A stretch of DNA of 64,000 nt from Chloroflexota bacterium (lineage in GTDB: Bacteria > Chloroflexota > Dehalococcoidia > Bin125). A program made the translations under genes and the position numbers. Below are positions 1,058 to 46,978 of this stretch, one piece after another. The notes under the pieces are model-generated. The model saw nothing but the letters and a program-made list of their open reading frames with translations, was not told where the DNA came from and did no database searches. The DNA lies in NCBI GenBank assembly GCA_009838915.1, contig VXQT01000013.1, positions 135,746 through 199,745 of the forward strand, given 5' to 3'. How positions within the stretch are numbered: the stretch's first letter is position 1; every line of letters begins with the position of its first letter.

Positions 1058-1764
1058 TCCGACTCGACGCGGTTCGCAAGACGTTTAAGACGGGCGAGAC
1101 CGAGATCAACGCGCTCGACGGGGTGAGTCTGCAAATCGAGCGCGGCGAATTCGTAGCCATCATGGGTCAGTCCGGCTCGGGTAAGAGCACGATGATGAAC
1201 ATCATCGGCCTGCTCGATCGACCAGATGAAGGCGCATACCTACTCTCAGGCCAGAACGTGGCCGGACTCAGCGAACACGCCCGCGCCCGGCTACGCGGCA
1301 CCGCTTTCGGCTTCGTCTTCCAGTCCTACTCGCTCCTGCCCCGCATGAGCGCCCTGGAGCAGGTCGAGCTACCCCTGATCTACCAGGGCGTCCGCGACCG
1401 TAGACGCCGAGCCGCCGAAGCCCTCGTCCGCGTTGGCCTGGCCGACCGCATCGGACACCGACCGACCCAGCTTTCCGGCGGCGAACAGCAGCGCGTCGCC
1501 ATCGCCCGCTCATTGGTCGTCGATCCATTGGTCGTGCTCGCCGACGAACCCACCGGCGCGCTCGACACCGCGACCGGACACGAGGTCATGACCCTGCTCA
1601 GCGATTTGGTCGACCAGCACGGCATGACGATCATCCTCGTCACCCACGAACCAGAAGTTGCCGCCTTCGCCCATCGCATGGTCAGAATGCGCGACGGCCA
1701 GATCATTGAGGACACCGGCGCGAGCAAAGCGGCTGATGCGCTCAACGGCGAGGCCTCGACATGA
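1054..1764 (+). CDS. ABC transporter ATP-binding protein, MacB/LolD-like
   Basis: Walker A GQSGSGKST, signature LSGGEQQRVAIARSL, Walker B VVLADEPTGALD. ATGA overlaps with both neighbours. Confidence 0.9.
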   Translation: MIRLDAVRKTFKTGETEINALDGVSLQIERGEFVAIMGQSGSGKSTMMNIIGLLDRPDEGAYLLSGQNVAGLSEHARARLRGTAFGFVFQSYSLLPRMSALEQVELPLIYQGVRDRRRRAAEALVRVGLADRIGHRPTQLSGGEQQRVAIARSLVVDPLVVLADEPTGALDTATGHEVMTLLSDLVDQHGMTIILVTHEPEVAAFAHRMVRMRDGQIIEDTGASKAADALNGEAST

Positions 1765-3014
1765 GCACGCTCGACGCCTTGCAGATCGCGGTCCGCGCGA
1801 TCATCGCCAATCGACTCAGGAGCCTGCTCACCTTGCTCGGCCTGGTGATCGGCGTCAGTTCTGTCATCGCCCTGATCGCCGTTGGACAAGGCACCCAGAA
1901 AGGCGTCAGCGATCAGATCCGCGGCCTGGGCACCGACCTCATCTTCATCGAACCCTCTGCCGAGGCGACCACCCAGCAGGGCGGCGGCGCATCGCCGATC
2001 ACGACGACCCTCACCCGGGCTGATGCCGATGCGATCGCGGCGAACGGCAACCCCGCGATCTCGGCGGTTACATCGCACATTACCGGCGAGGCTCAAGCCA
2101 TCGCAGGCGTGAACAACGTCGGCGCGGAGTCGGTCTTCACGTCGTCCAACTACGCCGAGGTGCGCGATCTGGAGGTAGCGACCGGCTCGTTCATCGCGCC
2201 CGGCCATGATCGGGCGGGCAGTCTGGTCGCCGTGCTGGGCATACGCGTCGCTGAGACGCTGTTTCCGAACGTTGACCCAATCGGCCAGGAAGTGCGCCTC
2301 TCCTTCCTCGCCGGTCGTGTCGTGTTCGCATTCACCGTGATTGGCGTACTCCACGAAGTTGGCGGCGCAGCCGACGCCGACGATCAGGTGTTCGTGCCGA
2401 TCACCGGAATGGCCAACCGCTTCCGCTTCCTATACACGCCCACCGGCGATCTGCGAGTTACCCAGATCGATGTCCAGGCCTCGCCGGGCGCCGACACGGA
2501 GCAGCTCAAGCAACAGATCAGCGAACTGTTGCTGTTTCGGCACAACCGCACCGACCCGGACTTCACCATCGAGAGCCAGGACGACTTGCTGGAGGCCGCG
2601 TCGGAGGTGGCGAACACGCTCTCCATCCTGTTGGGTGTGATTGGCGGAATTTCGCTGTTAGTGGGCGGGATTGGTGTGATGAACATCATGCTGGTCTCGG
2701 TTACGGAGCGGACTCGCGAAATCGGGATCCGCCGCGCCGTTGGAGCCACAGCCGGCGACATCGTGAATCAGTTTGTGACAGAAGCGCTGGCGCTCAGCGT
2801 GCTGGGCGGCATGATTGGGATCGTGATCGGTGTTGTGGCCTCGCTGCTGGTTGACGGCCAGACCTTGGGCGATCAGGAAGTGACGACCGTGATCCAGGCC
2901 TGGTCGATTGCCGCCGCGTTCGGCGTCTCCGCGGGAGTCGGCCTGATCAGCGGCATCTATCCAGCTTGGCGGGCGACCGTGGTTGACCCCATTGCCGCAC
3001 TCAGAAACGAATAA
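1761..3014 (+). CDS. ABC transporter permease, FtsX/MacB-type
   Basis: N-terminal TM helix, large periplasmic loop, and a C-terminal FtsX 4-helix block ending ...DPIAALRNE. Confidence 0.85.
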   Translation: MSTLDALQIAVRAIIANRLRSLLTLLGLVIGVSSVIALIAVGQGTQKGVSDQIRGLGTDLIFIEPSAEATTQQGGGASPITTTLTRADADAIAANGNPAISAVTSHITGEAQAIAGVNNVGAESVFTSSNYAEVRDLEVATGSFIAPGHDRAGSLVAVLGIRVAETLFPNVDPIGQEVRLSFLAGRVVFAFTVIGVLHEVGGAADADDQVFVPITGMANRFRFLYTPTGDLRVTQIDVQASPGADTEQLKQQISELLLFRHNRTDPDFTIESQDDLLEAASEVANTLSILLGVIGGISLLVGGIGVMNIMLVSVTERTREIGIRRAVGATAGDIVNQFVTEALALSVLGGMIGIVIGVVASLLVDGQTLGDQEVTTVIQAWSIAAAFGVSAGVGLISGIYPAWRATVVDPIAALRNE

Positions 3015-3094
3015 CGGCAGCCGCTATCTTGTCGCCGTCAGAGTCAATCGCGCCGTCGAGTCGACCGGCTCAGTGCAGGACGAGGAGTGGACAG

Positions 3095-3934
3095 ATGCCG
3101 TTGCCGCCTGAAGGATCTCTGAATCGCTTTGCGGGCAAGGTCGCCGTCGTGACCGGCGGCGCGAGCGGGATGGGCCGCGAGTCGTCGATTCGGCTGGGGC
3201 GCGAGGGTGCGTCCGTCGTGGTCGCGGGGCTGCCTGACGACGAGCGCGGCGCGGAGACGGTGGCGATGGTCGAGGCGGCCGGCGGTCAGGCCGTGTACGT
3301 CGGCGTCGACGTGACGCGCGAGGCCGACTGCGACGCAATGGCAGACGCAGCGCTGGAACACTTCGGCCGACTCGATCTCTGCATCGCCGCGGCGGGTATC
3401 TCGCACGCGGGCTACGTCTCGGGCGAGGTGACCGAGGGCGAGCCGCTGCTCGGCGGCGCACAGCGCCACGTAATCCACAAGCCGGTCGAGTACTGGGAAA
3501 AGGTGCTGGCCGTCAATCTGACCGGCGTGATGCTGACCAATCGCGCGGTGGCGCGGCGCATGATCGCGCAGGGCGAGGGCGGCGCAATCGTCAACATCTC
3601 CTCCGGCGCAGCCAAAGCACCGATTCGCGGGATGGCCGACTACTGCGTTTCCAAGACCGGGGTCTGGATGCTGACGCGCGTGCTCGCGCTGGAGCTTGCG
3701 CCAAACAACATCCGGGTCAACACAGTCGCCCCGGGCCTGATCGACACGCCGATGACGCTCGCGGTCACAACCGACGAGGAGCGCCGCCAGCGGCGCATCG
3801 AGAGCATCCCGCTCAATCGGTTGGGAGAACCGTCCGACATCGCCGAGGCTGCCCTGTTCCTGCTCAGCGACCAGGCCGGCTACATCACTGGACAGATCCT
3901 GCATCCGGACGGCGGCATCTTCGTCGGCAACTGA
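3095..3934 (+). CDS. SDR family NAD(P)-dependent oxidoreductase
   Basis: GKVAVVTGGASGMG Rossmann motif near the N-terminus. Catalytic region around YCVSK. I placed the start at the internal ATG preceded by GGAG; the ORF track begins at 3029. Confidence 0.85.
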   Translation: MPLPPEGSLNRFAGKVAVVTGGASGMGRESSIRLGREGASVVVAGLPDDERGAETVAMVEAAGGQAVYVGVDVTREADCDAMADAALEHFGRLDLCIAAAGISHAGYVSGEVTEGEPLLGGAQRHVIHKPVEYWEKVLAVNLTGVMLTNRAVARRMIAQGEGGAIVNISSGAAKAPIRGMADYCVSKTGVWMLTRVLALELAPNNIRVNTVAPGLIDTPMTLAVTTDEERRQRRIESIPLNRLGEPSDIAEAALFLLSDQAGYITGQILHPDGGIFVGN

Positions 3935-3976
3935 ATCCGCATGGGCCGGGCGTGATGGCGCGATACGCTATCACAG

Positions 3977-5188
3977 ATGCTCACTCTGGCCATCCAACAA
4001 CTCTTGACCAAGAAGCTCCGCTCGGCCCTGACCGTCCTCGGCTTTGGCGTCTGCGTCAACCTGTACATCGTGGTCACCACGGTGATGCGATTTATCACCG
4101 ACGACCTCGATCTCCAGGTACAGCGCTTCACCGGCGTGCTGTTCGTACAGTCGCGAGGACTGGCGGGCATGTCGGGCATCGAGTGGCCGCCGATCTCGTC
4201 AACGATCTCCAACGCCGAGGCACGGGCCGTGCTGTCGCAGCCCGCCGTCGATCCCGAGCGCTCGACCAAAGTGACGTTTGCATCGCTGGCGCCGCCGCCC
4301 TATCCGACGGCGCCGCCCGAGGCGCTCTTGGTCGGCATCGAACTGGGCAAGGAAGACGTCTTCCTCGGCGGCGCCGAGGCGGCCGCGGGACGGGTCGACT
4401 TTCCCCAGCCCAACGGCACAAACGTGGCCCCGCCCGCGATTCTTGGCGTGCTGGCGGCACGTCACTTCGCCTCGGCCGCCACGGCGACGACCGAAGTCCC
4501 ATCGCCGGTGGGCCCGATCGCGTTGGCGGCTCTGGGCAGCACGATCTCCGTTCGGGGGCACGAGTTTGAAGTGCAGGGAATCATCGAGCCCGAGACGAAC
4601 CAGTTGTTGCGCTCGGCGGTGCTCGTCCCGTTGGAGAGCGCACAGACGGTGCTGCAGACTCCGGATGCGGTTTCGGCGATGCTGCTCTCGCCCAAGCGCG
4701 CCTCCGACATCGAACCGCTGCAATCCTTGATCGAGTCCGACCACGCCGAGTTGATGGTGATCTCCGATAAGCAGCTTGCCGAGAACGCACGCAAGCTGCT
4801 CGACCGGGTCAATCAGCTCTTCAACGTGGTGCGCTGGACTTCGGTTTCGGTGGCGGCACTGTTGATTGCGATTGTGATGTTCGTTTCGGTACTGGAACGG
4901 ACTCGAGAGCTGGGCACGCTGCGCGCGATCGGCGCGCCGCGTCGGGCTCTGCTGTCGCTGATTCTCTCGGAGTCGGCGGGCTTCGCGCTGGCCGGATCGA
5001 TGGTCGGCGTGCCGATGTCGCGGGTCGTGATCCGCCAGGCGTTGGGACCCGACGCGGCCGGCTTACGCTCGAAGCAGATCGAGTACGGCGCAGCCGGAAT
5101 CCTGAGCCTGTGCTCGATGCTGGCTGCCGTCATGCCCGCCTGGCGCGCCGTGCAGGTCGACCCAATCATCGCACTGCGCTACGAGTGA
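3977..5188 (+). CDS. ABC transporter permease, FtsX-like
   Basis: N-terminal TM helix, a long extracytoplasmic domain, and a C-terminal FtsX block ending DPIIALRYE. Confidence 0.8.
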   Translation: MLTLAIQQLLTKKLRSALTVLGFGVCVNLYIVVTTVMRFITDDLDLQVQRFTGVLFVQSRGLAGMSGIEWPPISSTISNAEARAVLSQPAVDPERSTKVTFASLAPPPYPTAPPEALLVGIELGKEDVFLGGAEAAAGRVDFPQPNGTNVAPPAILGVLAARHFASAATATTEVPSPVGPIALAALGSTISVRGHEFEVQGIIEPETNQLLRSAVLVPLESAQTVLQTPDAVSAMLLSPKRASDIEPLQSLIESDHAELMVISDKQLAENARKLLDRVNQLFNVVRWTSVSVAALLIAIVMFVSVLERTRELGTLRAIGAPRRALLSLILSESAGFALAGSMVGVPMSRVVIRQALGPDAAGLRSKQIEYGAAGILSLCSMLAAVMPAWRAVQVDPIIALRYE

Positions 5189-5198
5189 GGGGGTCGTT

Positions 5199-5945
5199 GT
5201 GGGGAGCGAGCCGCAGGTTGTCGAAGAAGCGAGGGAATCGCAGCGGACCCCGCTCCTGTCGGCCCGCAACCTTGCCCGCATCTTCCATCTCGGCGGCCAA
5301 ACGATTCATGCTCTGGAGCCGCTGAATCTCGATATCCAGCGAGGCGATTTCATCGCCATCGCCGGACCGTCGGGTTCGGGCAAATCAACGCTGTTGCAGC
5401 TCCTGGGTCTGATCGAATCGCCCACCTCAGGCGAAGTGCGGGTTCAGGATCGGGCCGCGCACGGCCTGGGCGGCGAGCAGCGCGCGGCGCTGCGACTCAA
5501 GACGCTGGGCTTCGTCTTCCAGGCGTTCAACCTGCTGCAGATGCTGACCGCGCGGCAAAACGTCGAGATCGCGCTGGCTCTCGCCGGCTGGCCTCGGCGC
5601 AAACGCCGCGCTCGCGCGAAGGAGCTGCTCGAGTCGGTCGGCCTCGGAGAGCGGTTGGAGCACCGGCCGCTGCAACTCTCGGGCGGGGAACGTCAGCGCG
5701 TGGCCATCGCTCGGGCAATGGCCAACGATCCAGATGTGATCCTCGCCGACGAGCCAACCGGCAATCTCGACTCCCAGACCGGCCGTGAGATCGTCCAACT
5801 GCTGGAAGACCTGAATCGCGCCGGTCAGACGATCGTGATGGTCACGCACAACCTGGAGATTGCCAGACGCGCAGGACGGCTGTTCCTCATGCGCGACGGC
5901 CGGATGCGCGAAGTCGATCCGTCCGATCCTCGGGGGCTGGACTAG
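5199..5945 (+). CDS. ABC transporter ATP-binding protein
   Basis: GPSGSGKST Walker [16 protein letters not shown] signature, [11 protein letters not shown] Walker B. GTG start. Confidence 0.9.
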
Positions 5946-5987
5946 CCTTAACCTGCGGAGAGGCTCAACGAGCGGCTCGGAGGTCCT

Positions 5988-6458
5988 GTGACATCGGAAG
6001 CAACCCCGAGAGAGGTGACCCCAGCGGATGCGCCGGACTTCTGGCCTGAGGCGCTCGAGGTCATCAGCAGTGCGCCGATTGCGCTGCTGGCCACCGCAAA
6101 CGGTCGGCAGCCACACGTGCGGCCGGTGGTGCCGGCGTACGTGGACATGGTCGCCTACGTGCTGACCAGCTCGGGCTCTCCCAAGACCGATCAGGTCCAG
6201 GCCAATGCGTTGGTTGAACTTCTGCACTGGACCTCGGACTTCCGCCATCTCAACTTGGCCGGGTCGGCCACCGTGATCAACGACGCCGAGGAGATCGCCG
6301 AGGTCGCACCTCACTTTCCCTACACGGTTGATGACTTCTTCGGGCCCGATCTGCGAGCGCCGGCGATGCTCAAAGTGCGCCTGGAGCGTGTCGCTATCAC
6401 TACGTTCAACGACATCATTGCCGACAAGCGACCTCGCATCTGGCGCACAACCAGTTGA
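5988..6458 (+). CDS. Pyridoxamine 5'-phosphate oxidase family protein (FMN/F420-binding split-barrel)
   Basis: 156 aa. The ...PHVRPVV...ATVIND... pattern is typical of PPOX-class split-barrel proteins. F420 biosynthesis genes are present elsewhere in the window. Confidence 0.55.
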   Translation: MTSEATPREVTPADAPDFWPEALEVISSAPIALLATANGRQPHVRPVVPAYVDMVAYVLTSSGSPKTDQVQANALVELLHWTSDFRHLNLAGSATVINDAEEIAEVAPHFPYTVDDFFGPDLRAPAMLKVRLERVAITTFNDIIADKRPRIWRTTS

Positions 6459-6503
6459 CGGCATTCCGAGGACGCACAGGAATGAAGATGAGAGGATGAT
6501 TCG

Positions 6504-7448
6504 ATGCGTATCGCCCTGATTGGACAGGCGCCGTTCGGCGCGGCGGTGTTTGAGCGGCTCGTGGAAGACGGTCATGAGATCGTCGGCGTGTTTACCCCGC
6601 CGGAGCGTGAGGGCGGCCGTCCCGATCCGCTGGCCCAGGCGGCACGCGACAGAGGAATCACCCTGGTGCAACCGAGACGCTGGCAGCGGCGCGGGGTCGT
6701 GGACGAGGATGTCGTCGCGCAGTACGAGGCCACGAATCCCGACCTTAACGTGATGGCCTTCGTCACGCAGATCATCCCGACTCAGGTGCTCGACTTCCCG
6801 CCGCAGAAGACGATCCAGTACCACCCGTCGATCTTGCCGAAGCACCGCGGCCGCTCGGCGATCAACCACGCCATCCTCCAGGGCGACACGATGACCGGTG
6901 TCACGATCTTCTGGGTCGACGAGGGCATCGACACAGGACCGATCCTGCTACAGCGACCCTGCCCAATCGGTCCCGATACCACGCTCAACGATGTTTACCG
7001 CGAGTACCTCTTTCCGCTCGGCGTCGACGCCATGTCCGAGGCGGTCAAGCTGGTCGAGGCAGGCCAGGCGCCGCGTCATGTCCAGAACGAAGACGACATG
7101 ACCTACGAAGGTCCGTGGGAGGGCGACATCGCGCGGATCGACTGGTCACAACCGGCGCAGACGGTGCACGACTTTATCCGCGGGTCCGACCGCGCGCCCG
7201 GCGCATGGAGTGAGATCAACGGCGAGCGCGTCACGCTGCTCGGCTCGACGCGATCGGATCACTCAGGAGGCTCAGCCGGAGAGATCGCCGCCATCGGCGA
7301 CAGCGGCATGACCATCATTTGTGGGGACGGCGAATCGATTCGGGTGAGCACGCTGGCCGTGGGCCGTGACCGCCAACCGGCGTACGAGTGGGCGTCGGCG
7401 AACGGCATCCAGGTCGGAGCGGTGTTTGAGGCTGCTCCCGCCGACTAG
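6504..7448 (+). CDS. Formyltransferase family protein (methionyl-tRNA formyltransferase-like)
   Basis: N-terminal MRIALIGQAPFG start, SILPKHRG folate-binding motif, and a C-terminal Fmt-like domain. Confidence 0.7.
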   Translation: MRIALIGQAPFGAAVFERLVEDGHEIVGVFTPPEREGGRPDPLAQAARDRGITLVQPRRWQRRGVVDEDVVAQYEATNPDLNVMAFVTQIIPTQVLDFPPQKTIQYHPSILPKHRGRSAINHAILQGDTMTGVTIFWVDEGIDTGPILLQRPCPIGPDTTLNDVYREYLFPLGVDAMSEAVKLVEAGQAPRHVQNEDDMTYEGPWEGDIARIDWSQPAQTVHDFIRGSDRAPGAWSEINGERVTLLGSTRSDHSGGSAGEIAAIGDSGMTIICGDGESIRVSTLAVGRDRQPAYEWASANGIQVGAVFEAAPAD

Positions 7449-8846: not shown

Positions 8847-9619
8847 TCTGCTGCTCGGTCCTGCCGCGCAAGCTCTTCGCGCAACGACTTGACCTCGTCC
8901 TGGAGCGTCTTGAGTTCAGCCAGGATCTGTTCCTGCTCCTCGTCCTGACCCTGCTCGACGAACCATGCGGCGATGGTGGCCGTGACCATTCCCAGCAGCG
9001 CGAGGCCCAGCAGCGTAACGATTGCGCCCACGATGTTGACCATCGCCGAGTGCTCGTCCTGCACGCCGTCGCCGGTCACCATCGTATTGAGCGTCCACCA
9101 GAAGCCGTCGAACCAGTTGTCGAACTCGCCGATGCCACCGGCGACTTCGCCCGACTGCTGAACCCGCATGATGGCTTCGGTTCCGCCGAACAGAATCGTC
9201 AACACCAGGAGCACCGAGCTCGACGCGCCTCGCTGCAGGAACATCTTGCGAGCGCGTAAGGCAAACATCACCAGTCGCAGTGCTCGCAGGTAGGGCACCA
9301 ACACGATGACGACGTCGAACCAGTTCTCCCTCAGGAACTGGAATCGCCGCTCGGCCAACCAGACCCGCACGACGAGATCGACGGCGAACGCTGCCCAGAT
9401 TGCGACATCAATCCAGAACACCACCGAGTGCGCGGTTGGCGATGTCTCCCGGTCGATCACGTTTTCGAGCACCAACAGCGGAATCGTGGCGATCGCCAGG
9501 GTCAGTAACAGCCATCGGGTGCGCAGTTCCCAGCTCACCAGGTGCGCAGGCGAACGTCCCCGCCGCCAGGCAATCGCCCAGCCGCCAGCGTTAGCGATGG
9601 ACTCTGCAGATGCACTCAC
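8843..9619 (-). CDS. Ion transport protein, 6-TM voltage-sensor-type channel
   Basis: The S4-like helix LRALRLVMFALRARKMF has Arg at every third position. Pore loop FWWTLNTMVTGDG. C-terminal coiled coil resembling those of bacterial NaChBac/NavAb-type channels. Confidence 0.7.
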   Translation of the reverse strand: MSASAESIANAGGWAIAWRRGRSPAHLVSWELRTRWLLLTLAIATIPLLVLENVIDRETSPTAHSVVFWIDVAIWAAFAVDLVVRVWLAERRFQFLRENWFDVVIVLVPYLRALRLVMFALRARKMFLQRGASSSVLLVLTILFGGTEAIMRVQQSGEVAGGIGEFDNWFDGFWWTLNTMVTGDGVQDEHSAMVNIVGAIVTLLGLALLGMVTATIAAWFVEQGQDEEQEQILAELKTLQDEVKSLREELARQDRAAD

Positions 9620-9625
9620 GTCGGG

Positions 9626-11560
9626 CTACCGCAGACTCGACTTCATCGTTTCCCACGCCGAGCGGGCATCTTCGACCGAGCCTTCGTCCTCGATTGTGGA
9701 GATGTCGCCCGGATCGGTGTCGAGCGTGACTGCCTTGAGCACTCGGCGCATGATCTTGCCTGAGCGTGTCTTGGGCAGGGCATCGACAAAGTTGAGCTCG
9801 CCGATCACGGCGACGGGGCCGAGTTCACCTCGGATCGTCTGAAGGATTTCGGTGCGCATGTCGTCGCCCGGCTCGAAGCCGGCCTTGAGCACGACGAAGG
9901 CGGAGATCACCTCGCCGCGCAGTTCATCGGGACGGCCGGTGACCCCCGCCTCTGCTGCGCCGGGATGGCGGAGGATTGCCGACTCCACCTCGATCGTGCC
10001 GATCCGGTGCGCGGCGATCTTGATGATCTCGTCGGCGCGACCGGAGAACCAGACATAGCCGTCCTCGTCGACCGAGGTGGCGTCGCCGGTAAAGTAGACC
10101 TGCTTGCCCGGCACCTTGCCCCAGTAGTCGGTCTGGTAACGCTCGGGTTCACCCCAGAGACGCGCGGTCAGGCCGGGGAAGGGTCGTGTGATGGCGAAAA
10201 TCCCCTTGTCGTCCGCTGCGAGCTCCGCGCCGTCGGTGTCGAGCACCGTGCCTACGATCCCGGGTAGCGGGATTCCCGCCGAGCCTGGCTTGATCGGCAG
10301 CATCTGGATGCCGTATGGATTGCCGATGATCGGTCCGCCGGTCTCGGTCTGCCACATGTGATCGAGGACCGGAATCTGGTCGCCGAAGATCTCGTGCTGG
10401 AACCACTCCCAGGCCGGCGGATTGAGCACTTCCCCGGCCGAGAAGACGCGCGTCAGCGACGACATGTCAACCGCTTCGGCGGGCTCGGTGCCGGAGCGCA
10501 TCAGCAGTCGGATCGCGGTCGGAGAAGTGAACATGCCGGTCACCCCGTGGTCCTCGATGATCCGATAGAACGTGCTCACGTCCGGAAAATCAAGTGCGCC
10601 TTCGAAGGCGATCGTGGTCGCGCCGGCGAGCATAGGTCCGTAGACGATGTAGGAGTGTCCGACGACCCAGCCAATGTCCGAGGTTGCCCACCAGACATCC
10701 TCGGGCCGCAGGTCGAACACCCAGTCGGCCTGGCTAGCGACCCATACCGGATAGCCGCCGTGCGTGTGGACGCAGAGCTTGGGTCGCGCCGTGGTGCCCG
10801 ATGTGGCGAGGATGTAGGCAGGATCGTTGGCTTCCATGGCGGCGACGGATCCGTCCCCGTCAATGCCGGCGTCGAGGAAGTCGTCCCAGCTCATCTCCTT
10901 GTCGCCGCCGATGTTGGGGCTGTCCGCGAGCCGCCGCTCGACGACGACCGTCTCGACGATCTCACCGGCGCCCTCGTTCTCCAGCGCGCCTCGGACGAAG
11001 TGGTCGAGCGGGACGTTGCGCCCGCGCCGGTAAGTCGAGTCGGTGCAGAAGATCGCCTTGGCTTCGGCGAGCTTGACCCGCTCGGCGATCGCGCCCGCGC
11101 CGAAGCCGGCGAAGATGACGAGGTGGACCGCGCCGATCCGCGCGCAGGCGAGCATCAGCGCGATGGCCTCGTAGTTGGTCGGCATGTAGATCGCGACGCG
11201 GTCGCCGCGCTCGATGCCGATCGAGCGCAGCGAGGCGGCCATGCGCTCGACGTTGCGCAGGAGCTGCGCGTAAGTGAACACCCGCTGGCCGCCGTTCTCG
11301 TCCAGTGCGATCAGGGCGGCACGGCCACCGTTGCCGCCCTCGACCTGGGCGTCGAGGCAGGCGTATGCGAGATTGGTCTCGCCACCGATGAACCAGCGGA
11401 AGGCAGGCACTTCTCCCGGCGTCCATTCGAACACGTCGTCCCACTCGCGGAACCAGGGAATCCTGGCGGCCGCCTCCGACCAAAACGCGTCGGGTTCGTC
11501 GAGCGCGCGCCGCTGAATCTCTCGCACGATCGGGCCGAGTAGATCGATGTGTGACGCCAT
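9626..11560 (-). CDS. AMP-forming acyl-CoA synthetase (acetate/propionate--CoA ligase family)
   Basis: 644 aa. AMP-binding motifs YILATSGTTARPK, WQTETGG and the ...SGK.. C-terminus. Acs/PrpE-like N-terminus. Confidence 0.85.
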   Translation of the reverse strand: MASHIDLLGPIVREIQRRALDEPDAFWSEAAARIPWFREWDDVFEWTPGEVPAFRWFIGGETNLAYACLDAQVEGGNGGRAALIALDENGGQRVFTYAQLLRNVERMAASLRSIGIERGDRVAIYMPTNYEAIALMLACARIGAVHLVIFAGFGAGAIAERVKLAEAKAIFCTDSTYRRGRNVPLDHFVRGALENEGAGEIVETVVVERRLADSPNIGGDKEMSWDDFLDAGIDGDGSVAAMEANDPAYILATSGTTARPKLCVHTHGGYPVWVASQADWVFDLRPEDVWWATSDIGWVVGHSYIVYGPMLAGATTIAFEGALDFPDVSTFYRIIEDHGVTGMFTSPTAIRLLMRSGTEPAEAVDMSSLTRVFSAGEVLNPPAWEWFQHEIFGDQIPVLDHMWQTETGGPIIGNPYGIQMLPIKPGSAGIPLPGIVGTVLDTDGAELAADDKGIFAITRPFPGLTARLWGEPERYQTDYWGKVPGKQVYFTGDATSVDEDGYVWFSGRADEIIKIAAHRIGTIEVESAILRHPGAAEAGVTGRPDELRGEVISAFVVLKAGFEPGDDMRTEILQTIRGELGPVAVIGELNFVDALPKTRSGKIMRRVLKAVTLDTDPGDISTIEDEGSVEDARSAWETMKSSLR

Positions 11561-11647
11561 GACGAGACTCCATAAGTGCTGTCGAAGGGAATGGATGCCA
11601 GGTGCGGATACCGTATGCGGAGGGTATCAGCGGAGGGGACTTGTCCA

Positions 11648-13171
11648 ATGGACGAGGACATCATCAACGAAGTGCTTGAATCGCGCGCGAATGCGATGGA
11701 CGCCGCGCGGCCCGAGGCCGTCGCGAGGGTACACGCCAGGGACAAGTTCACCGCTCGCGAACGGATTGCGATGGTGTTGGACGAGGGCAGCTTTGTCGAG
11801 TACGGCGTGTTGGCGGTGCCGGCGAACAAGTCGATGTGGGGACCCGCGGATGGGTTGGTGCAGGGATTTGGGACGGTGGCCGGACATCCCGTCGGCATTG
11901 CGTCCTACGACTACACCGTGCAGGGCGGCACGCAGACGGCGCTGAATCACGGCAAGTTCGACCGACTCCTGGAGCTGGTGCATGATCGACGCTGGCCATT
12001 GGTCACCTTCGCGGACGGGGGCGGCGCCAGGGCCCATGACCTGGCCGGGTCACAGCGAGGCCTGACCGGCCGCTGGGGCACCTTCGACGGCATGGCCGTG
12101 TTGTCAGGCTGGGTGCCGACGGTGTCGGTGGTGTCGGGGCGCTCGTTTGCGGGCAACGCGTCTATTGCCGGACTGTCCGACTTCATCGTCGCCACGCGCG
12201 ACTCGGCGATCGGCATGGGCGGACCGCCACTGGTCGAAGGGGCGATGGGGCTGAAGCTGACGCCGGACGAGATCGGTCCGGCGGAGATGCACGATCGCGT
12301 CGGCGGGATCGACCTGATGGTCGAGACAGAAGCCGAAGCGATTGACGCGGCGGGACGATATCTCCGTTACTTCCTCTACGACCTGCCCGAGGGTGAGCCG
12401 GATCCGTGGGCCGAGCGGATTCGCGGGATCGTGCCGTCGAATCGGCGACGGGCGTACGACATGCGTCGCGTGATCCGCGCAATCATGGACCGCGATTCGG
12501 TGTTCGAGCTGCGCCCGACCTGGGCGCCGCAGTTGATCACCGCGCTGGCCCGGCTGGGCGGGCGTTCCGTTGGGATCATCGCCAATCAGCCGCTCTCGGT
12601 GATCGCTGGCGCGATCGACTCGAACGCGTCCGACAAGATTGCCCGCTTCGTCCAGCTCTGTGACGCGCATGAGATTGCGATGGTCTCGCTGGTTGACAAT
12701 CCCGGCTACATGGTTGGCCGGCCGGCCGAAGAGGCGGGGATCGCGAGGCACCACGCCCGCCCGATCATCGCGCACCAGAATCGGACGGTGCCGCTCTACA
12801 CGATCCAGTTGCGCAAGGCGTATGGGCTGGGTCCGGCGGCGATGGGCAACTCCTATGCGCCGCGAGACATCCGGCTGGCCTGGCCCACGGCCGAATCGGG
12901 CGGAATGGGGCTGGAAGGGGCGTCGCTGCTGGTAAACCGGGACCGGATCCGCGAGGTTGAGCGGGACGATCCGGCCGAGGCAAAGCGGCTGCGCGATGAG
13001 TGGGCCAACGAAATGCGAGAGCGTAACTCGGCGATCAATGCCGGGCGTCGCTATGAGTTCGACGACGTGATTGCGCCTGAGGAGACGCGCGACGTGCTGA
13101 TCGCCATGCTGCGGATGACGCCGCGCGCGCCGCTGTCGCCGATCAAGAAGCACCCGGTCGACGCCTGGTAG
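11648..13171 (+). CDS. Acyl-CoA carboxylase carboxyltransferase subunit (propionyl-CoA carboxylase beta-like)
   Basis: The two tandem carboxyltransferase halves (...FAGN... and ...NPGYMVG...) are present. I placed the start at the ATG after a GAGGGGA RBS; the ORF track begins at 11576. Confidence 0.8.
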   Translation: MDEDIINEVLESRANAMDAARPEAVARVHARDKFTARERIAMVLDEGSFVEYGVLAVPANKSMWGPADGLVQGFGTVAGHPVGIASYDYTVQGGTQTALNHGKFDRLLELVHDRRWPLVTFADGGGARAHDLAGSQRGLTGRWGTFDGMAVLSGWVPTVSVVSGRSFAGNASIAGLSDFIVATRDSAIGMGGPPLVEGAMGLKLTPDEIGPAEMHDRVGGIDLMVETEAEAIDAAGRYLRYFLYDLPEGEPDPWAERIRGIVPSNRRRAYDMRRVIRAIMDRDSVFELRPTWAPQLITALARLGGRSVGIIANQPLSVIAGAIDSNASDKIARFVQLCDAHEIAMVSLVDNPGYMVGRPAEEAGIARHHARPIIAHQNRTVPLYTIQLRKAYGLGPAAMGNSYAPRDIRLAWPTAESGGMGLEGASLLVNRDRIREVERDDPAEAKRLRDEWANEMRERNSAINAGRRYEFDDVIAPEETRDVLIAMLRMTPRAPLSPIKKHPVDAW

Positions 13172-37222: not shown

Positions 37223-37549
37223 GTGAGACACATCACCTTTGCCGGAACCGTGGTGCGTGACGAGCGCCAGCTCGACGGCAGCCGGCATCTGGAGGTCGTG
37301 GGTGAGATCGGTGACAGCGAAGTGGCGCTCTACGTCGTAGTCGATCATGACGGTGAGTTGGCCGAGGCCGACATGACGCTCGAGTTGGACGGGGAACCAG
37401 AATCGGTCGCCTTCGAAGGAGACTCGGGCCTGGTCGACTGGGATGACATGAGGTTTACGTTGACCTCCGAGCACTTTGCCCTGGATGCCCGCCCTCGCCA
37501 GGACGGGGACCTGGACATGCGCCTGGTCGTGCGCGGAGCGAATCCGTGA
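37223..37549 (+). CDS. Hypothetical small acidic protein
   Basis: Coding-like acidic ORF ending in an ATGA overlap with cofD. Start uncertain; GTG chosen. No recognisable family. Confidence 0.35.
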   Translation: MRHITFAGTVVRDERQLDGSRHLEVVGEIGDSEVALYVVVDHDGELAEADMTLELDGEPESVAFEGDSGLVDWDDMRFTLTSEHFALDARPRQDGDLDMRLVVRGANP

Positions 37550-38487
37550 CGCGCGCGGCAGTGCTCGCCGGGGGCGTCGGCGCGGCTCGATTTCTTGACG
37601 GTCTTGTCCGCGTCCTGCCGCCCGAAGACGTGACTGCGATCGTCAACGTAGGTGACGACATGGAGTGGGCCGGGCTGCACATCTCGCCCGACCTCGACAC
37701 GGTCTCGTACACCCTGGCCGGCCTGGTTAACCCGGAGACCGGCTGGGGCCTCATCGGCGAGTCGCGACGCACGCTGGACCGGCTCTCGCAACTGGGCGGA
37801 CCCGACTGGTTCATGATCGGCGACCTCGATCTGGCCACTCATCTCTACCGCACCCATCGTCTCTCGCAGGGCGACCCGCTCTCGGCGATCACCGGCGATC
37901 TCACCGCCCGCCTCGGGCTGCAGTGCGCGATCACACCCGTCACCGACGATCGGTTGCGCACGGTGGTGGGCACGGACAGCGGAGAGTTGGCCTTCCAGGA
38001 TTACTTCGTACGCCGCCGCGCCGCCGATCGCGTGCACTCGCTCAGATTCGACGGCGCCGACTCGGCCCGCCCAGCGCCGACGGTCGTCAAGACCCTGGAG
38101 CAGGCCGATGTCATCGTCATCGCGCCGTCCAATCCATTCCTCAGCATCGACCCGTTACTCAGCGTGCCGGGCTTGCGCGACTTGGTCGTCTCATACCGCT
38201 CTCGTGTCGTTGCAGTTAGCCCGATCGTTGGTGGGGCGGCGGTTAAGGGACCGGCGGCGGAGATCCTTCAGTCGCTGGGGCACGATGTCTCCGCGCTTGG
38301 CGTCGCGCGACTCTACGCGGACTTAGCCGGTGTATTCGTCCTCGACGAAGCTGACAAGCTCCTCGCCTCGAGGATTGAGGGCGAAACACAAATGCGCGTG
38401 GTCGTCATGCCAACGCTGATGACCGATGTCGGGGCGAAGATGTCGCTGGCCGAGGGAACCCTGAAGGCGGCGCTCAATGCCGACTGA
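37546..38487 (+). CDS. cofD: 2-phospho-L-lactate transferase (F420 biosynthesis)
   Basis: AVLAGGVGAARFL N-terminal motif and a CofD/YvcK fold. Confidence 0.85.
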   Translation: MTRAAVLAGGVGAARFLDGLVRVLPPEDVTAIVNVGDDMEWAGLHISPDLDTVSYTLAGLVNPETGWGLIGESRRTLDRLSQLGGPDWFMIGDLDLATHLYRTHRLSQGDPLSAITGDLTARLGLQCAITPVTDDRLRTVVGTDSGELAFQDYFVRRRAADRVHSLRFDGADSARPAPTVVKTLEQADVIVIAPSNPFLSIDPLLSVPGLRDLVVSYRSRVVAVSPIVGGAAVKGPAAEILQSLGHDVSALGVARLYADLAGVFVLDEADKLLASRIEGETQMRVVVMPTLMTDVGAKMSLAEGTLKAALNAD

Positions 38488-39169
38488 ACCGAGCGGCATC
38501 GTGGCCGTTGTTCCCGTGCGGGGACTGCCTGCGGGCAAACGCCGCCTGGCGGCTCTGCTCGATCTGGAGGAACGCAACTCACTGGTTCGCGCCATGCTGG
38601 ACGATGTGGTGGCTGCTCTGGTCGCTGCCGAGCGCGTCGACGAGGTCGTGATCGCATCGCGTGACGCCGCAGCACGCGACGAAGCGGCTCGTCTGAATGT
38701 CGGATTCCTCGATCAGACCGACCTGCGTCTCGGCTACAACCGGGCTGTGCAGTTCGCACAGGAGACGTTGGCCGACTCCGGTGCGATCCTGATCGTCCCG
38801 GCCGACGTGCCGCTAATCACCCCCGACTCGGTCGACATGATGGTCGCGACTGCGCCCGATGGTCCTGCAGTGGTCGTCGCGCCGGCGCACGATGGCGGCA
38901 CAAACGGACTGTTCCTGCGCCCTCCGGATGTCATTGCACCGCAGTTTGGACCGTCCTCGGCGCGCGCGCATCAACAGTCAGCGGCCGCCGCCGGCGAGAT
39001 GGGCGTGCCATTCCGCGAGTCGCGGATCGACGTCTGGGCGTTTGACCTGGACACACCGTCGGACTTGCGCTGGTTGAGGGAGGCGCTTCCGCAGTTGCCG
39101 GATGCGATCGCGCCCAACTCCAGGCGTTGGCTCTCGGCGCATGCGGCGCACATGGAAGCATTGAGCTAG
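38477..39169 (+). CDS. cofC: 2-phospho-L-lactate guanylyltransferase (F420 biosynthesis)
   Basis: IVAVVPVRGLPAGKRRL nucleotidyltransferase N-terminus. Overlaps cofD by 11 bp. Confidence 0.75.
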   Translation: MPTEPSGIVAVVPVRGLPAGKRRLAALLDLEERNSLVRAMLDDVVAALVAAERVDEVVIASRDAAARDEAARLNVGFLDQTDLRLGYNRAVQFAQETLADSGAILIVPADVPLITPDSVDMMVATAPDGPAVVVAPAHDGGTNGLFLRPPDVIAPQFGPSSARAHQQSAAAAGEMGVPFRESRIDVWAFDLDTPSDLRWLREALPQLPDAIAPNSRRWLSAHAAHMEALS

Positions 39170-41858: not shown

Positions 41859-42487
41859 GTGCCTAGTTTCGCTGCTTCCAATACGGTGTGCGCCGACGAC
41901 TGCTTTACCTTGGCCACTCGCGTCGGTCCGAAGATGTCTACCAACCGGCGTGTCAGATACTTGCGCAATCCGTTTACAACCACGAGTGCCAGGCTGCCGC
42001 CGTCCAACATTGCGTCGTAGGCATCGAGCAGCAGTTGATCGAGCGCGTCATTGCCGGCCTGGGCGGGCAGGTTGGCGACGACAAGGTCGTAGGCGTGCAG
42101 CGGCTGCCGCAGTTGACGGATGCCGTCACTGAGCGTCACTGTTGCGTTCGCCAGTCGATTGCGCGCGATGTTCTGGGCGGCGGACTCGACTGCGCGCATG
42201 TCAGTATCGACCATATCGACTTGCGCGTCGGGCCAGCGAGCCGCGAGTGTGAGTCCGATTGCGCCGTATCCGCAGCCCAGGTCCAGGACTCGCGAGGGAG
42301 CGGGCAGCCGCTCCAACTCGCGGAGCAGCAGCGCGCTGCCTTCGTCTAGCGCACGGGCCGAGAAGAGGCCGTGACGGCTCCGGAGTTTCAGCACGCGGGG
42401 TCCTGCGTCTATGCGCAGCTCGGGCTGCTTGACAAGATGGCGTCGTAGTTCGACAACTCGGTCGGAGTCGACGGTGGAATCGCTCAC
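41855..42487 (-). CDS. Class I SAM-dependent methyltransferase (RsmC/small-domain type)
   Basis: VLDLGCGYGAIG SAM motif I and NLP motif IV-like (VVANLP). Confidence 0.75.
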   Translation of the reverse strand: MSDSTVDSDRVVELRRHLVKQPELRIDAGPRVLKLRSRHGLFSARALDEGSALLLRELERLPAPSRVLDLGCGYGAIGLTLAARWPDAQVDMVDTDMRAVESAAQNIARNRLANATVTLSDGIRQLRQPLHAYDLVVANLPAQAGNDALDQLLLDAYDAMLDGGSLALVVVNGLRKYLTRRLVDIFGPTRVAKVKQSSAHTVLEAAKLGT

Positions 42488-43575
42488 AGCGGATCAATCT
42501 TCTCGGAGACCGGAACAAAATCACCCATGTGCTCCGGGTCCATACGTCCCACGATTCCGGGATAGATGCCCGTGCGCTTACCGGCCGTCGCGCCGGCGAC
42601 CGCGATCAAAATGTGTGAGGGATGCGCGACCTTGGACATCGGTCGGTCGAGTTCGTCGGGCCCAAGACCGGAGTGGGCCAGGGCTGTGTCGGTGACGCCT
42701 CCGCCGACCTCAGCCGAGACGAGGCGTTCTCGGATCGGCAGAGCCGTCAGTTCCATAAGCGCTTCGCGGATGTCGGCCTTGCTCCAGCCGTCATGGCGGA
42801 AGACATGGGCATGTTCGGGGCTAACTACCAGCATCGATGGGCCGATTTGACCGTTGGGGCTAAAGATGCGCTGGAAGCCCATTGCCAGGGAACCGACCAG
42901 CGCGCGGGCGCTGCGGCTGTACTCGTCGATGCAGAGGCGAGGCCCGCCAATCACGGGTAGGAGCGTGACGACGCTGTCGTCGGGCGCGTAGCCGAACTCG
43001 ACATGTAGCGGCGGCCAGGGCGAGGCGTCCTCGTGCTCGGCGAAGGTGAGCGTGAATTTGTGGGCTCCACCAAGAATGGTCTGATCGATTTCGCCCTCTC
43101 GAGCCCCGCCGATGTTGCGCAACACAAGGCGCAACGCCCGGCCGATTGTCATGTTCGCTCGGTTGCCCTGGCCCAGCGCGTTGAGGCCCCAGTTCATTCC
43201 GATTTGTTCCCGGATTGGTCCGTTGACGATCAGCATCGGCGAGATGCCGTCCGTGCTGGCGACAACCCCGTGCAAGGGGAAACGGCCGGCTGATGCGGCT
43301 CGCACCGCGGCAATGATCGCGGGCAGGTACTCGGGCTTGGCCCCGGCTGCGACTGCGTTGACGGCAATCTTCTCGACCGTCGCATCGGCATAGTTGGGTG
43401 GGATTCTGCCGATGATCTCCGCTGGAGAGCACCGTGTTGCGCTCAGCATCCGCTCGACTCGCTCGCGAGTCGGCGGGACCAACGGGAGGCCGTCGGTGAT
43501 TCGCTGTTCGAGCATGAACTCGTAGACATCGTCGTGATCGGCGATGTCGACGGTTCGGGACAGGAGCTCGGTCAT
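42484..43575 (-). CDS. Uncharacterised conserved protein, paralog 1 of a tandem family (possibly the GGGtGRT family)
   Basis: Conserved blocks shared by three proteins in the window: DHDDVYEF, DGLPxVPPTRERV, NALGQGNRAN..GRALRL, FAEHEDASPW, GGP..CID. Has a GGGVTDT motif. Confidence 0.6.
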   Translation of the reverse strand: MTELLSRTVDIADHDDVYEFMLEQRITDGLPLVPPTRERVERMLSATRCSPAEIIGRIPPNYADATVEKIAVNAVAAGAKPEYLPAIIAAVRAASAGRFPLHGVVASTDGISPMLIVNGPIREQIGMNWGLNALGQGNRANMTIGRALRLVLRNIGGAREGEIDQTILGGAHKFTLTFAEHEDASPWPPLHVEFGYAPDDSVVTLLPVIGGPRLCIDEYSRSARALVGSLAMGFQRIFSPNGQIGPSMLVVSPEHAHVFRHDGWSKADIREALMELTALPIRERLVSAEVGGGVTDTALAHSGLGPDELDRPMSKVAHPSHILIAVAGATAGKRTGIYPGIVGRMDPEHMGDFVPVSEKIDPL

Positions 43576-44681
43576 GAACGGATCAGGGCGGAAGGCGGCT
43601 TGAACACTGGAGCGGTCTGCGTTGGATCGCCATCACCGAAGATGCCCTGGTAGATACTGGTCCACTTGCCGGCGTGGCTCCCGGCGACAGTGATGGCGAT
43701 GAAGGAGGGATCGGCGACCTTGGACATCGGTGCATCAAGGTCCGCCTCGGAGAGACCGTACTTCTCGGTCACGTACTCGTTGATGCCGCCGCCCATCGTC
43801 GGCGTGGCAAGACGCTCCCGCAGCGGGAGCGCGGTGAACTCCATGATCGCTTCGCGGATGTTGTCCTTCGACCAGCCATCCGCGCGATAGACATCGGCGT
43901 GTTCAGGGCTGATCACGAACATCGTCGGCGTAACCTGGCCGCGCGGCTTGACGACCTGCTGGAACGCCATGGCTATCGACCCGGTTAGTGCGCGAGCGTC
44001 GCGGCTGGTCTGGTCGATGCAGACACGCGGACCGCCGGTCGTGGGAAGCAAGGAAACCACGCTGTCAGCGGGATCGTAGCCGTGCTCGACGTGGAATGGT
44101 TCCCAGGGCGAGGTGTCTTCGTCTTCGGCGTAGCTGAGGGTCCACTTGTGTCCGCCGCCCTGGATGGCCTGCTCGATCTCGCCAGGCACCGCGCCGCCAA
44201 TGTTGCGCAGCATCAATCGCAGCGCGCGTCCGAGGGTCGAGTTGGCGCGGTTGCCCTGGCCCAGCGCGTTGAGCCCCCAATTCATGCCGATCGCTTTGCG
44301 CACTGGCCCGTTGACCAGCATCATCGGCGCGAGTCCCGCTGTAGTGGCGATCGAGCCGTGCAGTGGAAAGCGTCCGTCGGCCGCCGCTTCGACCGAGGCC
44401 AGAACTACGGGGAAGTACTCGGGCTTACAACCTGCCATGACCGCGTTGATGGCTGCCTTCTCGACTGTCATCGGCGCCATGTTGGGCGGGAGCGTCGCAA
44501 CCACCGCGCTGCGGTTGCTCCACTGCTCGGGGGCGCGCTCCAGCATCCGGTCGACGCGCTCGCGCGTCGGCGGGACGACCGGGAGGCCGTCGGTGATGCC
44601 CTGGTCGAAGATGAACTCGTGGACATCATCGTGGTCGGCGATCTCGATGACTCTTGAGTAGAAGTCGGATTCGCCGGACAC
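43572..44681 (-). CDS. Uncharacterised conserved protein, paralog 2
   Basis: The same conserved blocks as paralog 1. 4-bp overlap with paralog 1. Confidence 0.6.
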   Translation of the reverse strand: MSGESDFYSRVIEIADHDDVHEFIFDQGITDGLPVVPPTRERVDRMLERAPEQWSNRSAVVATLPPNMAPMTVEKAAINAVMAGCKPEYFPVVLASVEAAADGRFPLHGSIATTAGLAPMMLVNGPVRKAIGMNWGLNALGQGNRANSTLGRALRLMLRNIGGAVPGEIEQAIQGGGHKWTLSYAEDEDTSPWEPFHVEHGYDPADSVVSLLPTTGGPRVCIDQTSRDARALTGSIAMAFQQVVKPRGQVTPTMFVISPEHADVYRADGWSKDNIREAIMEFTALPLRERLATPTMGGGINEYVTEKYGLSEADLDAPMSKVADPSFIAITVAGSHAGKWTSIYQGIFGDGDPTQTAPVFKPPSALIRS

Positions 44682-44721: not shown

Positions 44722-44772
44722 GCCTTCGCTTCTCTCTCCCCCCGAGGAGCGGGGAGAGAGAGAAGCGAAGGC
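44722..44772. terminator. Long GC-rich hairpin (~20-bp stem) between the selenoprotein gene and paralog 2
   Basis: GCCTTCGCTTCTCTCTCCCC ... GGGGAGAGAGAGAAGCGAAGGC with a 9-nt loop CCGAGGAGC. No U-tract. Confidence 0.5.
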
Positions 44773-44799: not shown

Positions 44800-45330
44800 C
44801 TACTCGACGGGCGCCATCAAGGTGTCAAGAATCTCGTCGACGAAGCGTTCGGCGTGTTCGTGCATCTCGGCGTCGGTGCGGTCCTGCATCGGATGCGGAA
44901 TGAAGACGCGACGCACTTCTTCGAGTCCAAGTCGCTCGGCCTGGTGGCTGGCGGCCTTGATGAACTCGGAGGTGGCGACGAAAACGCTGGGCTTGCCCTG
45001 CAGTTCGAAAAAGACGGTGTCGTGCACACTGCACGTCGTGCAGGATCCTCAATCGGCGAGCGCTTCGATGACGAAGTCGCACTCCTCCAGAATCTCATCC
45101 TTGATCGGTTGCGGGGCCGGCTTGGCGACAGTCGGCTTCATGAAGCGGCGCGTCTCGACTCCTGGCGCGCGCTCGTGCAGCAATTCCTCAAGCCGGTCGA
45201 GGAAGACGTCGCCGCGCGGCTTGGAAATGTCGAGCAGCGCAATCGTCCCATGCAGCGCCTCGGGGCGCGGCGTGAGCGATCGCTTGATCGGCACTCGTTC
45301 GTCCGTAGGGTCGAGGATCTGGGTAACCAT
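44800..45330 (-). CDS. UGSC family selenoprotein with selenocysteine at an in-frame TGA (minus-strand codon 45051..45049)
   Basis: ORFs 45049..45330 and 44800..45027 are in the same frame, separated by one TGA and 7 codons. Read-through gives ...EALAD-U-GSCTTCS-VHDTVFF..., which is the U-G-S-C motif. A hairpin lies 11 nt downstream of the UGA. Thioredoxin-like context. Confidence 0.75.
45019..45051 (-). other. Candidate bacterial SECIS element: UGA followed by an 11-nt spacer and a hairpin GACGUGCA-GUG-UGCACGAC
   Basis: 7-bp stem with one A.A mismatch and a GUG apical loop. It starts 11 nt 3' of the UGA, matching the positional rule for SelB-dependent recoding. Confidence 0.55.
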
Positions 45331-45400
45331 TGGACCTCTCCATCAACGCGCCGTCTGCAGGGTTGCGGCGCGCTACTCGCAGTCTGTCATACTCGGCGTC

Positions 45401-46978
45401 TCATACGCCGATCTTCCCGCTGGTCGGCAACGAATAGGCGCCGCCGGCCCAGCCGCCGAGGATGGTTGAGAACTTCGCCGCCGGCGAACCGGCGACGACG
45501 AGGATGATGTTGGACTTGTCGCGAAACTTGGACACCGGCATGTCGAGTGCGGCTTCCCCGCCGAAGCGCTCGACGATGTCGGGCGGCAAACCACAGCCGG
45601 CGTCAGCGGAACGCAGGCGGTCCTTGAGCGGAATCGCCGTCTCTTCCATGATGCACTCGCGCACGTCGTCCTTGGACCAGCCCGAGCGTCCGAAGATGCC
45701 GGCATGGTCGGGCGAGAGAACGACGAGGGTATCGACCATCGGCGATTTGGGGTCCTGCATGCAACTCATCGAGAGCGCCAATGTGCCGGCCAGTCCGCGG
45801 CCGTCGCGCGAGCGCTCGTCGGCGACCGTGGCCGGTCCACCGGACATGGCCATCAGCGTCGCGACATCGTCGGTCGGCTCAAAGCCGCGCTCAACGGCGA
45901 GTGACTCCCAGGGGCTGGCGTCTTCGTGTTCGGCGAAGTTCATGGTCAGACGGTGCGGCCCGCCCTGGGTCGCGCGGTCGGTGCCGCCGGGCACGCTGCC
46001 GCCGACGTTGCGGGCGCAAAGCCTCAGCGCGCGGCCGATGGACGCATTGGCGCGGTTGCCGCTGCCCAGCGCGTTGTGCAGGTAGTTCATCCCGATCCGG
46101 TCGCGGATCGGACCGTTGAAGACACCAACCGGCGTCGCGCCCATGGTCGTGGCCAACACGCCGTGGATGTTGAAGCTTTCGGTGCAAGCGATTTCGACCA
46201 GGGTGATGATCGAGGGCAGATACTCGGGCTTCGCGCCGGCCATGACGGCGTTGATCGCGATCTTCTCCACCGTGATCGGCGCGAGGTTGGGCGGCATGAC
46301 CGCGACTTCATCCTGCGGGTCGCGCGGCGTGCCCTGGAGCATCTTCCAGACGCGCTCGCGGGTCGGCGGCACAACCGGGAAACCGTCGGTGTAGCCCTGC
46401 TCATACATGAACTCGTGGATGTCGTCGCTTGCGGCGAGGTCAACGAGTCGTGAGAGCAGGTCGCCGCTCTTGAGCGCCTGCAGCCGCTCGTAAACGCCCG
46501 GTTCGTAGTTGCGGGCCCCGCAGCCGGGCCGTTGCTCGGGCAACGCCTCCCAATCGATGGCAGTGTCCCCGCCGGACCGGCCGGCGAGCGTCATCGATTC
46601 GCCGGCAATCTCGCGCCACTCGTGCTTGTCGAAGCCGAAGGTCTGCAGTGTGCAGTTTTGCTCTTCGTCGTAGAGGAAGAGCGTGGGCACGGTGTCGATG
46701 TCGGTCTCGTACGAGAGGTCGAGCGCGTCGTCGTCGAGCAGCGGCATGGTCAGGTCGTGGCGATCCTTGAGCACGGCGATATCGTCGCGCTTCTGCACTG
46801 CAACCCAGACATCCAGGCCGTCCTCGGTCGCGCGGTGGACGGCTTCAAGCAGCGGGAGCGTCAGGTTGCAGGTGTCGCAGTCCTCTTTGACCAGTGCTAG
46901 CAATACTGGCCCGTCGGGCGGGAAGTGCATCTCTTCGCCATCGGCGTTGGCGAGGGCAAAACGAGTTGGCGGGTGCAT
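45401..46978 (-). CDS. Fusion protein: N-terminal thioredoxin-like CxxC domain plus paralog 3 of the uncharacterised family
   Basis: N-terminal ...LLALVKEDCDTCNLTLPLLE is a Trx-fold CxxC. From ~160 aa onward the same blocks appear as in paralogs 1 and 2 (GFPVVPPTRERV, NALGSGNRAN..GRALRL, FAEHEDASPW). Confidence 0.65.
   Translation of the reverse strand: MHPPTRFALANADGEEMHFPPDGPVLLALVKEDCDTCNLTLPLLEAVHRATEDGLDVWVAVQKRDDIAVLKDRHDLTMPLLDDDALDLSYETDIDTVPTLFLYDEEQNCTLQTFGFDKHEWREIAGESMTLAGRSGGDTAIDWEALPEQRPGCGARNYEPGVYERLQALKSGDLLSRLVDLAASDDIHEFMYEQGYTDGFPVVPPTRERVWKMLQGTPRDPQDEVAVMPPNLAPITVEKIAINAVMAGAKPEYLPSIITLVEIACTESFNIHGVLATTMGATPVGVFNGPIRDRIGMNYLHNALGSGNRANASIGRALRLCARNVGGSVPGGTDRATQGGPHRLTMNFAEHEDASPWESLAVERGFEPTDDVATLMAMSGGPATVADERSRDGRGLAGTLALSMSCMQDPKSPMVDTLVVLSPDHAGIFGRSGWSKDDVRECIMEETAIPLKDRLRSADAGCGLPPDIVERFGGEAALDMPVSKFRDKSNIILVVAGSPAAKFSTILGGWAGGAYSLPTSGKIGV

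Follow-up and report, generated by a model that had tools for sequence, protein, structure and literature searches.

The window considered here is a stretch of 64,000 nucleotides (nt) from a Chloroflexota bacterium of the class Dehalococcoidia (GenBank assembly GCA_009838915.1, contig VXQT01000013.1), and the subject of this report is a gene on its minus strand that very probably encodes a selenoprotein of the UGSC family. At the locus, two short open reading frames (ORFs) follow each other in one frame. The upstream ORF starts with the ATG at 45330, codes for 93 amino acids (aa) and ends with the TGA at 45051..45049, and the downstream ORF starts with the GTG at 45027, codes for 75 aa and ends with the TAG at 44802..44800. 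The gap after the TGA (45048-45027) is 21 nt, or seven codons (GSCTTCS). When the TGA is read through, one complete gene results (44800..45330, minus strand, with its ATG at 45330..45328), and its product of 176 aa contains the sequence ...CDFVIEALAD-U-GSCTTCS-VHDTV.... A Shine-Dalgarno-like GGAGAGG, as far as can be read from the sequence, lies 4 nt 5' of the ATG (45335..45341, minus strand). The in-frame UGA (45049..45051, minus strand) is the predicted selenocysteine (Sec) codon of residue 94, a prediction based on a conserved alignment column and on homologs with cysteine. It opens the motif U94-G-S-C97-T-T-C100 (UxxCxxC; 45031..45051, minus strand), which is followed by an invariant His-Asp in 82 gene copies. 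The initial annotation had placed two fragments in the same minus-strand frame, set apart by the TGA and seven codons, and had given the joined peptide; its coordinates and description are exact, and the sequence and the ORF translation confirm the junction.

For a profile search of the read-through protein, the U was written as C. The NCBIfam model NF041046, "UGSC family (seleno)protein," gives 155.3 bits against an equivalog cut-off of 125 (residues 29-171), which bears out the proposed family, and the Pfam family PF24696, "UGSC," agrees with 151.7 bits against a cut-off of 25 (residues 4-172, profile positions 1-171 of 172). Both alignments cross the TGA without interruption, and no other Pfam family is matched by the protein even at E = 10.

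The UGSC family has long been known and has a curated model (PMC2398784; PMC13188914). The UGSC-containing protein is among the most abundant selenoprotein families in the Global Ocean Sampling (GOS) data, with 255 Sec forms and 21 Cys forms, and is commoner in the non-marine samples (PMC2398784). Recent reviews give NF041046 as the UGSC model and still term the function uncharacterised. The window protein is of the family's length class (176 aa), carries U-G-S-C at the same profile position, and comes from a family in which Sec forms predominate, Cys forms are rare and the distribution is environmental or aquatic, as it is here (NF041046/PF24696; Zhang & Gladyshev, PMC2398784). There is no essential difference between them. 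The window gene is thus the correct detection of an ordinary member, this time from a Dehalococcoidia genome, of a family known since the 2000s. A similar UxxC motif is found in another selenoprotein, the proline reductase PrdB (pfam07355), which adjoins UGSC in the GOS tables and often occurs in the same environmental samples (PMC2398784).

The window holds 11 other in-frame TGA sites that could be considered as Sec codons. Judged by their context peptides only, none has a recognisable redox motif, and they were rejected as apparent off-frame artefacts of the GC-rich genome.

Conservation of the TGA and the hairpin behind it

A scan with one genome per species gave 568 confirmed stretches, and the best 80 loci were kept for all locus counts. 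The closest are Dehalococcoidia/Chloroflexota metagenome-assembled genomes that are 95-99% identical; orthologs at this level of identity lie on the complete chromosomes OY820591.1, OZ241982.1, OZ242281.1 and OZ244861.1. The more distant ones are labelled Binatia/Deltaproteobacteria, Gammaproteobacteria, Alphaproteobacteria (Sulfitobacter), Acidobacteria/Vicinamibacteria and Acidimicrobiales/Ilumatobacteraceae (Actinomycetota), so that the 80 loci cover six or more phyla. In all of them (80/80 loci, 82 gene copies), as well as in a further metagenome locus (L083), the codon in the U column is TGA, and there are no frameshifts across the 82 copies. The local context is (A/G)D-U-GSC(T/V)(T/S)C, then xHD; among the copies gathered with the pattern [*C]G[STA]CxxC, *GSC(T/V)(T/S)C followed by xHD is seen in 82/82. 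Two loci have a second copy with a TGA. These are L073 (~10565..12300) and L077 (~9016..11200), both from Vicinamibacteria/Acidobacteriota, in which the second, divergent copy reads IGD-U-GSCTSC.

To the initial annotation, both fragments looked like real coding sequence, and conservation on the two sides of the TGA agrees: when the 60 more distant copies are compared, the part upstream of the TGA is 61% identical and the part downstream of it 54%. It had also expected standard gene callers to split the gene. This is what the databases contain, since most relatives there are N-terminal fragments of 96-100 aa or C-terminal fragments of 75-85 aa. No homolog was found in which the halves are naturally separate genes, and every split entry is a product of gene calling that stops or begins at the TGA. 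A homolog search with the C-terminal half returned 10 close hits only, which leaves little depth for this part of the protein.

Three full-length database proteins are available. In two of them, cysteine stands in the U column, encoded by TGT in L081 (protein P0002) and by TGC in L082 (protein P0003), which is the alignment of U with Cys that the initial annotation called for. The third, P0001 (L083, 187..708, a Joint Genome Institute (JGI) metagenome contig), has W in the protein record and TGA in the DNA; the contig was therefore translated with a code in which TGA is Trp. Such a translation is another route to mis-recorded selenoproteins.

Behind the UGA lies a predicted hairpin that resembles a bacterial selenocysteine insertion sequence (SECIS) and is based on comparison and folding (45019..45037, minus strand). 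Its core stem, CGUGCA/UGCACG, is at 45035..45021 (minus strand) and its loop, GUG, at 45029..45027; an outer G-C pair (45037/45019) extends the core stem beyond an A·A mismatch. There are 13 nt from the UGA to the core stem and 19 nt to the loop. Published constraints for bacterial SECIS elements are a loop of 3-9 nt, a stem of 4-16 bp, a G at loop position 1 or 2, a UGA-to-loop distance of 16-37 nt and a minimum free energy (MFE) of at most -7.5 kcal/mol (PMC13188914). The window hairpin lies within all of these, with its 3-nt loop starting with G and then U, its 6-bp stem, its 19-nt spacing and an energy of -9.2 kcal/mol when the hairpin is imposed on 45 nt; in 60 nt it belongs to the free MFE fold (-16.4 kcal/mol). 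The bSECISearch consensus, with Escherichia coli fdhF as the prototype, likewise describes a hairpin inside the coding sequence just after the UGA, and the 3-nt loop starting with G-U, the 6-bp upper stem, the 19-nt spacing and the stability are alike. The fdhF element has a bulged U, which is lacking in the window hairpin. We take the UGCA...UGCA stem of the window hairpin to be comparable to the upper stem of fdhF, GGUUGCAGGUCUGCACC.

Across 76 distinct sequences, 97% of the hairpin cells are paired, and controls slid along the alignment collapse. Two-sided changes are found in three of the seven pairs: the outer G-C becomes A-U in 10 sequences, another G-C becomes A-U in one, and an A-U becomes G-C in two. 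The outer change and one inner change are purely synonymous changes at third positions (ACG..GAC to ACA..GAT in the 10 sequences and ACG..CAC to ACA..CAT in the one). In addition, the codons within the hairpin are frozen, with ACG for Thr in 67/68 cases, TGC for Cys in 76/76, AGT for Ser in 73/73 and GTG for Val in 64/64. The codon entropy of ACG-TGC-AGT-GTG is 0-0.11 bits. In the closest codons around this run it is 0.85-1.94 bits (5' of the run Gly, Ser, Cys and Thr; 3' of it Thr and Val), and for His and Asp in the 3' arm of the stem it is 0.44-0.66 bits.

Several observations weigh against this hairpin. In isolation it reaches -7.4 kcal/mol, which is borderline compared to -7.5. The 73 nt around the UGA are no more stable than shuffled sequences (z +0.62), so the case rests on the comparative evidence rather than on single-sequence folding. 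A competing fold in the 45-nt context is slightly more stable (-10.3 versus -9.2 kcal/mol), and a rival local hairpin, UGCAC-GAC-GUGCA, could form at -4.9 kcal/mol. The need to encode invariant amino acids fixes several stem bases, and only 13 cells in three pairs show compensatory events. The Cys homologs also give a mixed answer. In L082 (TGC), the hairpin is degraded to 4 bp and -4.9 kcal/mol; L081 (TGT) keeps it intact, so only one Cys form shows decay. Rfam contains nothing relevant, either for the whole window at gathering scores or for the site at E <= 10. On balance, the hairpin is probably the SECIS element of the UGSC gene, a prediction drawn from its sequence and that of its relatives. 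In that role, the hairpin with its GUG loop 19 nt downstream would recruit SelB and Sec-tRNA(Sec), the UGA at 45051..45049 would not be read as a stop during translation, and Sec would be inserted at residue 94.

Readings of the motif and of the UGA

The available AlphaFold2 model is that of the Cys homolog P0002 (mean predicted local distance difference test score, pLDDT, 88.8). Its CGSC (residues 95-98) lies between the strand 87-93 and the helix 96-111, that is, at the N-terminus of helix 3, straight after strand 3. The motif thus sits at a helix N-terminus following a strand, and the model does not have a thioredoxin fold. The predicted fold of UGSC is flavodoxin/Rossmann-like and not the thioredoxin-like one that the literature had suggested. 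A reservation about this prediction is that the model covers a homolog 51% identical to the window protein and not the window protein itself. The product of the gene would be a small cytoplasmic alpha/beta protein with the motif U94-x-x-C97(-x-x-C100) at the N-terminal end of a helix, and it would most likely cycle between the selenol/thiol and the selenenylsulfide forms.

One could also consider the UxxCxxC motif, together with the invariant His-Asp, as a metal or iron-sulfur site with Sec as a ligand, which would make the UGSC selenoprotein a metal or electron carrier. The three ligand-type residues and the His-Asp allow this, but a fourth conserved Cys ligand is not seen (C84 varies among C, A, S, N, V and G). 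The place of the motif at a helix N-terminus after a strand is the usual one for a CxxC redox pair, and the neighbouring genes encode proteins of the thiol-disulfide oxidoreductase type. The metal site is thus an unlikely, though not negligible, alternative to a redox pair.

The remaining alternatives concern the UGA itself. If it were a true stop, the locus would be a pseudogene with a nonsense mutation or a pair of independent small genes, in keeping with the two ORFs given by gene callers, the GTG seven codons past the TGA and a window without Sec machinery. However, the TGA is in the same column in 82/82 copies across phyla, with similar conservation on both sides and no frameshift; some lineages have ACG or CTG in place of the putative restart codon, which no ribosome-binding site precedes; full-length Cys forms exist; and the family models span the junction. 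A true stop is, in our estimation, extremely improbable. Equally improbable is a reassigned or leaky code in which the UGA is read as Trp, Gly or Cys, a reading for which the W in the JGI translation of P0001 could be cited: TGA is the stop of 11 of the 29 Pfam-supported genes of the window, including the gene directly upstream of UGSC, which argues against a genome-wide reassignment; homologs with a sense codon have Cys there and not Trp or Gly; the SECIS-type hairpin is conserved; and selA, selB and tRNA-Sec flank the Sulfitobacter ortholog. The TGA with conservation on both sides, the Cys homologs and the ordinary TGA stops together exclude a pseudogene, two genes and genome-wide recoding, and these readings, with that of recoding to Trp, were rejected on the comparative data.

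What counts against Sec decoding is that selA, selB, selD and tRNA-Sec were not found in the 64-kb window. The search covered the 29 Pfam-supported ORFs, tRNA genes, and tblastn with the SelA and SelB of Sulfitobacter; the window has no tRNA gene, and the tblastn queries matched neither the window nor any of the other loci. Because the machinery does not lie in the window, we infer Sec decoding in this organism from the comparison. Users of Sec are known within the Chloroflexi (PMC1794560). The machinery does stand next to a relative in Sulfitobacter sp. M05 (L056), where the gene order is selA (TIGR00474, 589.6 bits), selB (TIGR00475, 278.2 bits), tRNA-Sec (anticodon TCA), the partner gene described below and UGSC with its TGA. 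This strain is cultured, and the block is contiguous at 645..6510 of the locus (NZ_JABEDH010000001.1). This contiguity suggests that in Sulfitobacter sp. M05 the Sec machinery may have the partner-UGSC pair as a main client.

The reading of the initial annotation, a UGSC-family selenoprotein hidden as two split ORFs, is supported by the family models, the TGA at 80/80 loci and the Cys homologs. From the sequence data, the gene is very probably that of a UGSC-family selenoprotein, and its decoding through the UGA, the core of this report, would have a probability of roughly 0.9.

The upstream partner and the meaning of the pair

Immediately upstream of UGSC is the gene of a conserved partner of 525 aa (45401..46978, minus strand), which has an N-terminal thioredoxin (Trx) domain of the TlpA/ResA type and a C-terminal domain of ~350 aa. 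The Trx domain carries C34-D-T-C37, and Cys153 in the linker is conserved. On the other side of UGSC are two paralogs of the C-terminal domain, one of 369 aa without a Trx domain (43572..44681, minus strand), which is 48-50% identical to the C-terminal domain of the partner and has no family match in Pfam or NCBIfam, and one of 363 aa (42484..43575, minus strand), whose gene overlaps that of the 369-aa paralog by 4 nt. The ~350-aa domain is thus present in three copies in the window (45401..46450, 43572..44681 and 42484..43575, minus strand), with many invariant polar residues. It has no match in Pfam, NCBIfam or the PDB, by sequence or by fold. The family of this domain has >7000 members that are annotated only as "TlpA family/redoxin," a label that comes from the fused N-terminal domain.

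The partner differs from the TlpA/ResA/DsbE/CcmG oxidoreductases in that neither a signal peptide nor a membrane anchor is obvious by eye, and by its fused ~350-aa domain, which is without known relatives. Its sequence scores far under the cut-offs of the ResA and StoA models. The "Unknown_1" fusion domain of PMC2398784 could be the same as the domain of the partner.

In 63 of the 80 loci, the partner precedes UGSC, and L073 even has a second pair of the two genes, which is divergent. The second UGSC copies of L073 and L077 are each preceded by a divergent homolog of the partner C-terminal domain (35-36% identical). The pairing of UGSC with a Trx-fused protein with the ~350-aa domain is new here and is undescribed in the UGSC literature consulted. 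From the gene order, the UGSC protein could act as the redox partner of this TlpA-like Trx protein with an enzyme-like domain. Two points weaken the idea: the role has gene order as its only basis, and 17 of the 80 loci have no partner nearby, such as those in Tepidiformaceae in which UGSC is beside secA. For a selenium-sulfur redox partnership of UGSC with the upstream Trx-fusion protein, the odds suggested by the sequence are about even.

In the 3' direction, UGSC and the two paralogs are followed by genes for a methyltransferase, a major facilitator superfamily (MFS) transporter and an acyl-CoA dehydrogenase, and 5' of the locus are genes for a Trx-TPR protein, a pterin-binding enzyme and a 2-oxoacid dehydrogenase complex. 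Homologs of CofD and CofC, which belong to coenzyme F420 biosynthesis, are found a few kb away (37546..39169, plus strand). After its stop, UGSC is separated from the following gene by a spacer of 118 nt, in which lies a GC-rich hairpin with a perfect stem of 23 bp and a loop of 5 nt (44722..44772, minus strand). The folding energy of the spacer is -73.3 kcal/mol (z -6.9 compared to shuffled sequences), the hairpin is not followed by a run of T, and its sequence is unique in the window. Since the hairpins that related Dehalococcoidia loci carry in this spacer are GC-rich too but different, it may act as a variable terminator, stabilise the mRNA or be an element like the repetitive extragenic palindromic (REP) sequences.

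Taken as one joint proposal, UGSC and its partner would form a widespread two-component selenium redox module; some bacteria may keep their Sec machinery mainly for this module, an idea that comes from the order selA, selB, tRNA-Sec, partner and UGSC in Sulfitobacter; the ~350-aa domain, triplicated in the window, would be an enzyme family to which no solved structure is detectably related; and the fold of UGSC would be flavodoxin-like and not that of thioredoxin. We regard this proposal as a whole as evenly balanced between right and wrong.

The finding shows how standard gene calling turns one real gene into two hypothetical ORFs. As most public UGSC relatives are stored as fragments, hundreds of entries would be put right by gene calling that takes Sec into account. 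The parts worth following are the gene pairing, the sel cluster of Sulfitobacter, the non-Trx fold and the ~350-aa domain. They leave the classification unchanged, and the window gene stays an ordinary member of a known family. UGSC is among the most abundant environmental selenoprotein families, and with three leads, namely the pairing with a Trx-fused partner, the adjacency to sel genes in Sulfitobacter and the predicted non-thioredoxin fold, the question of its biochemical function becomes more testable.
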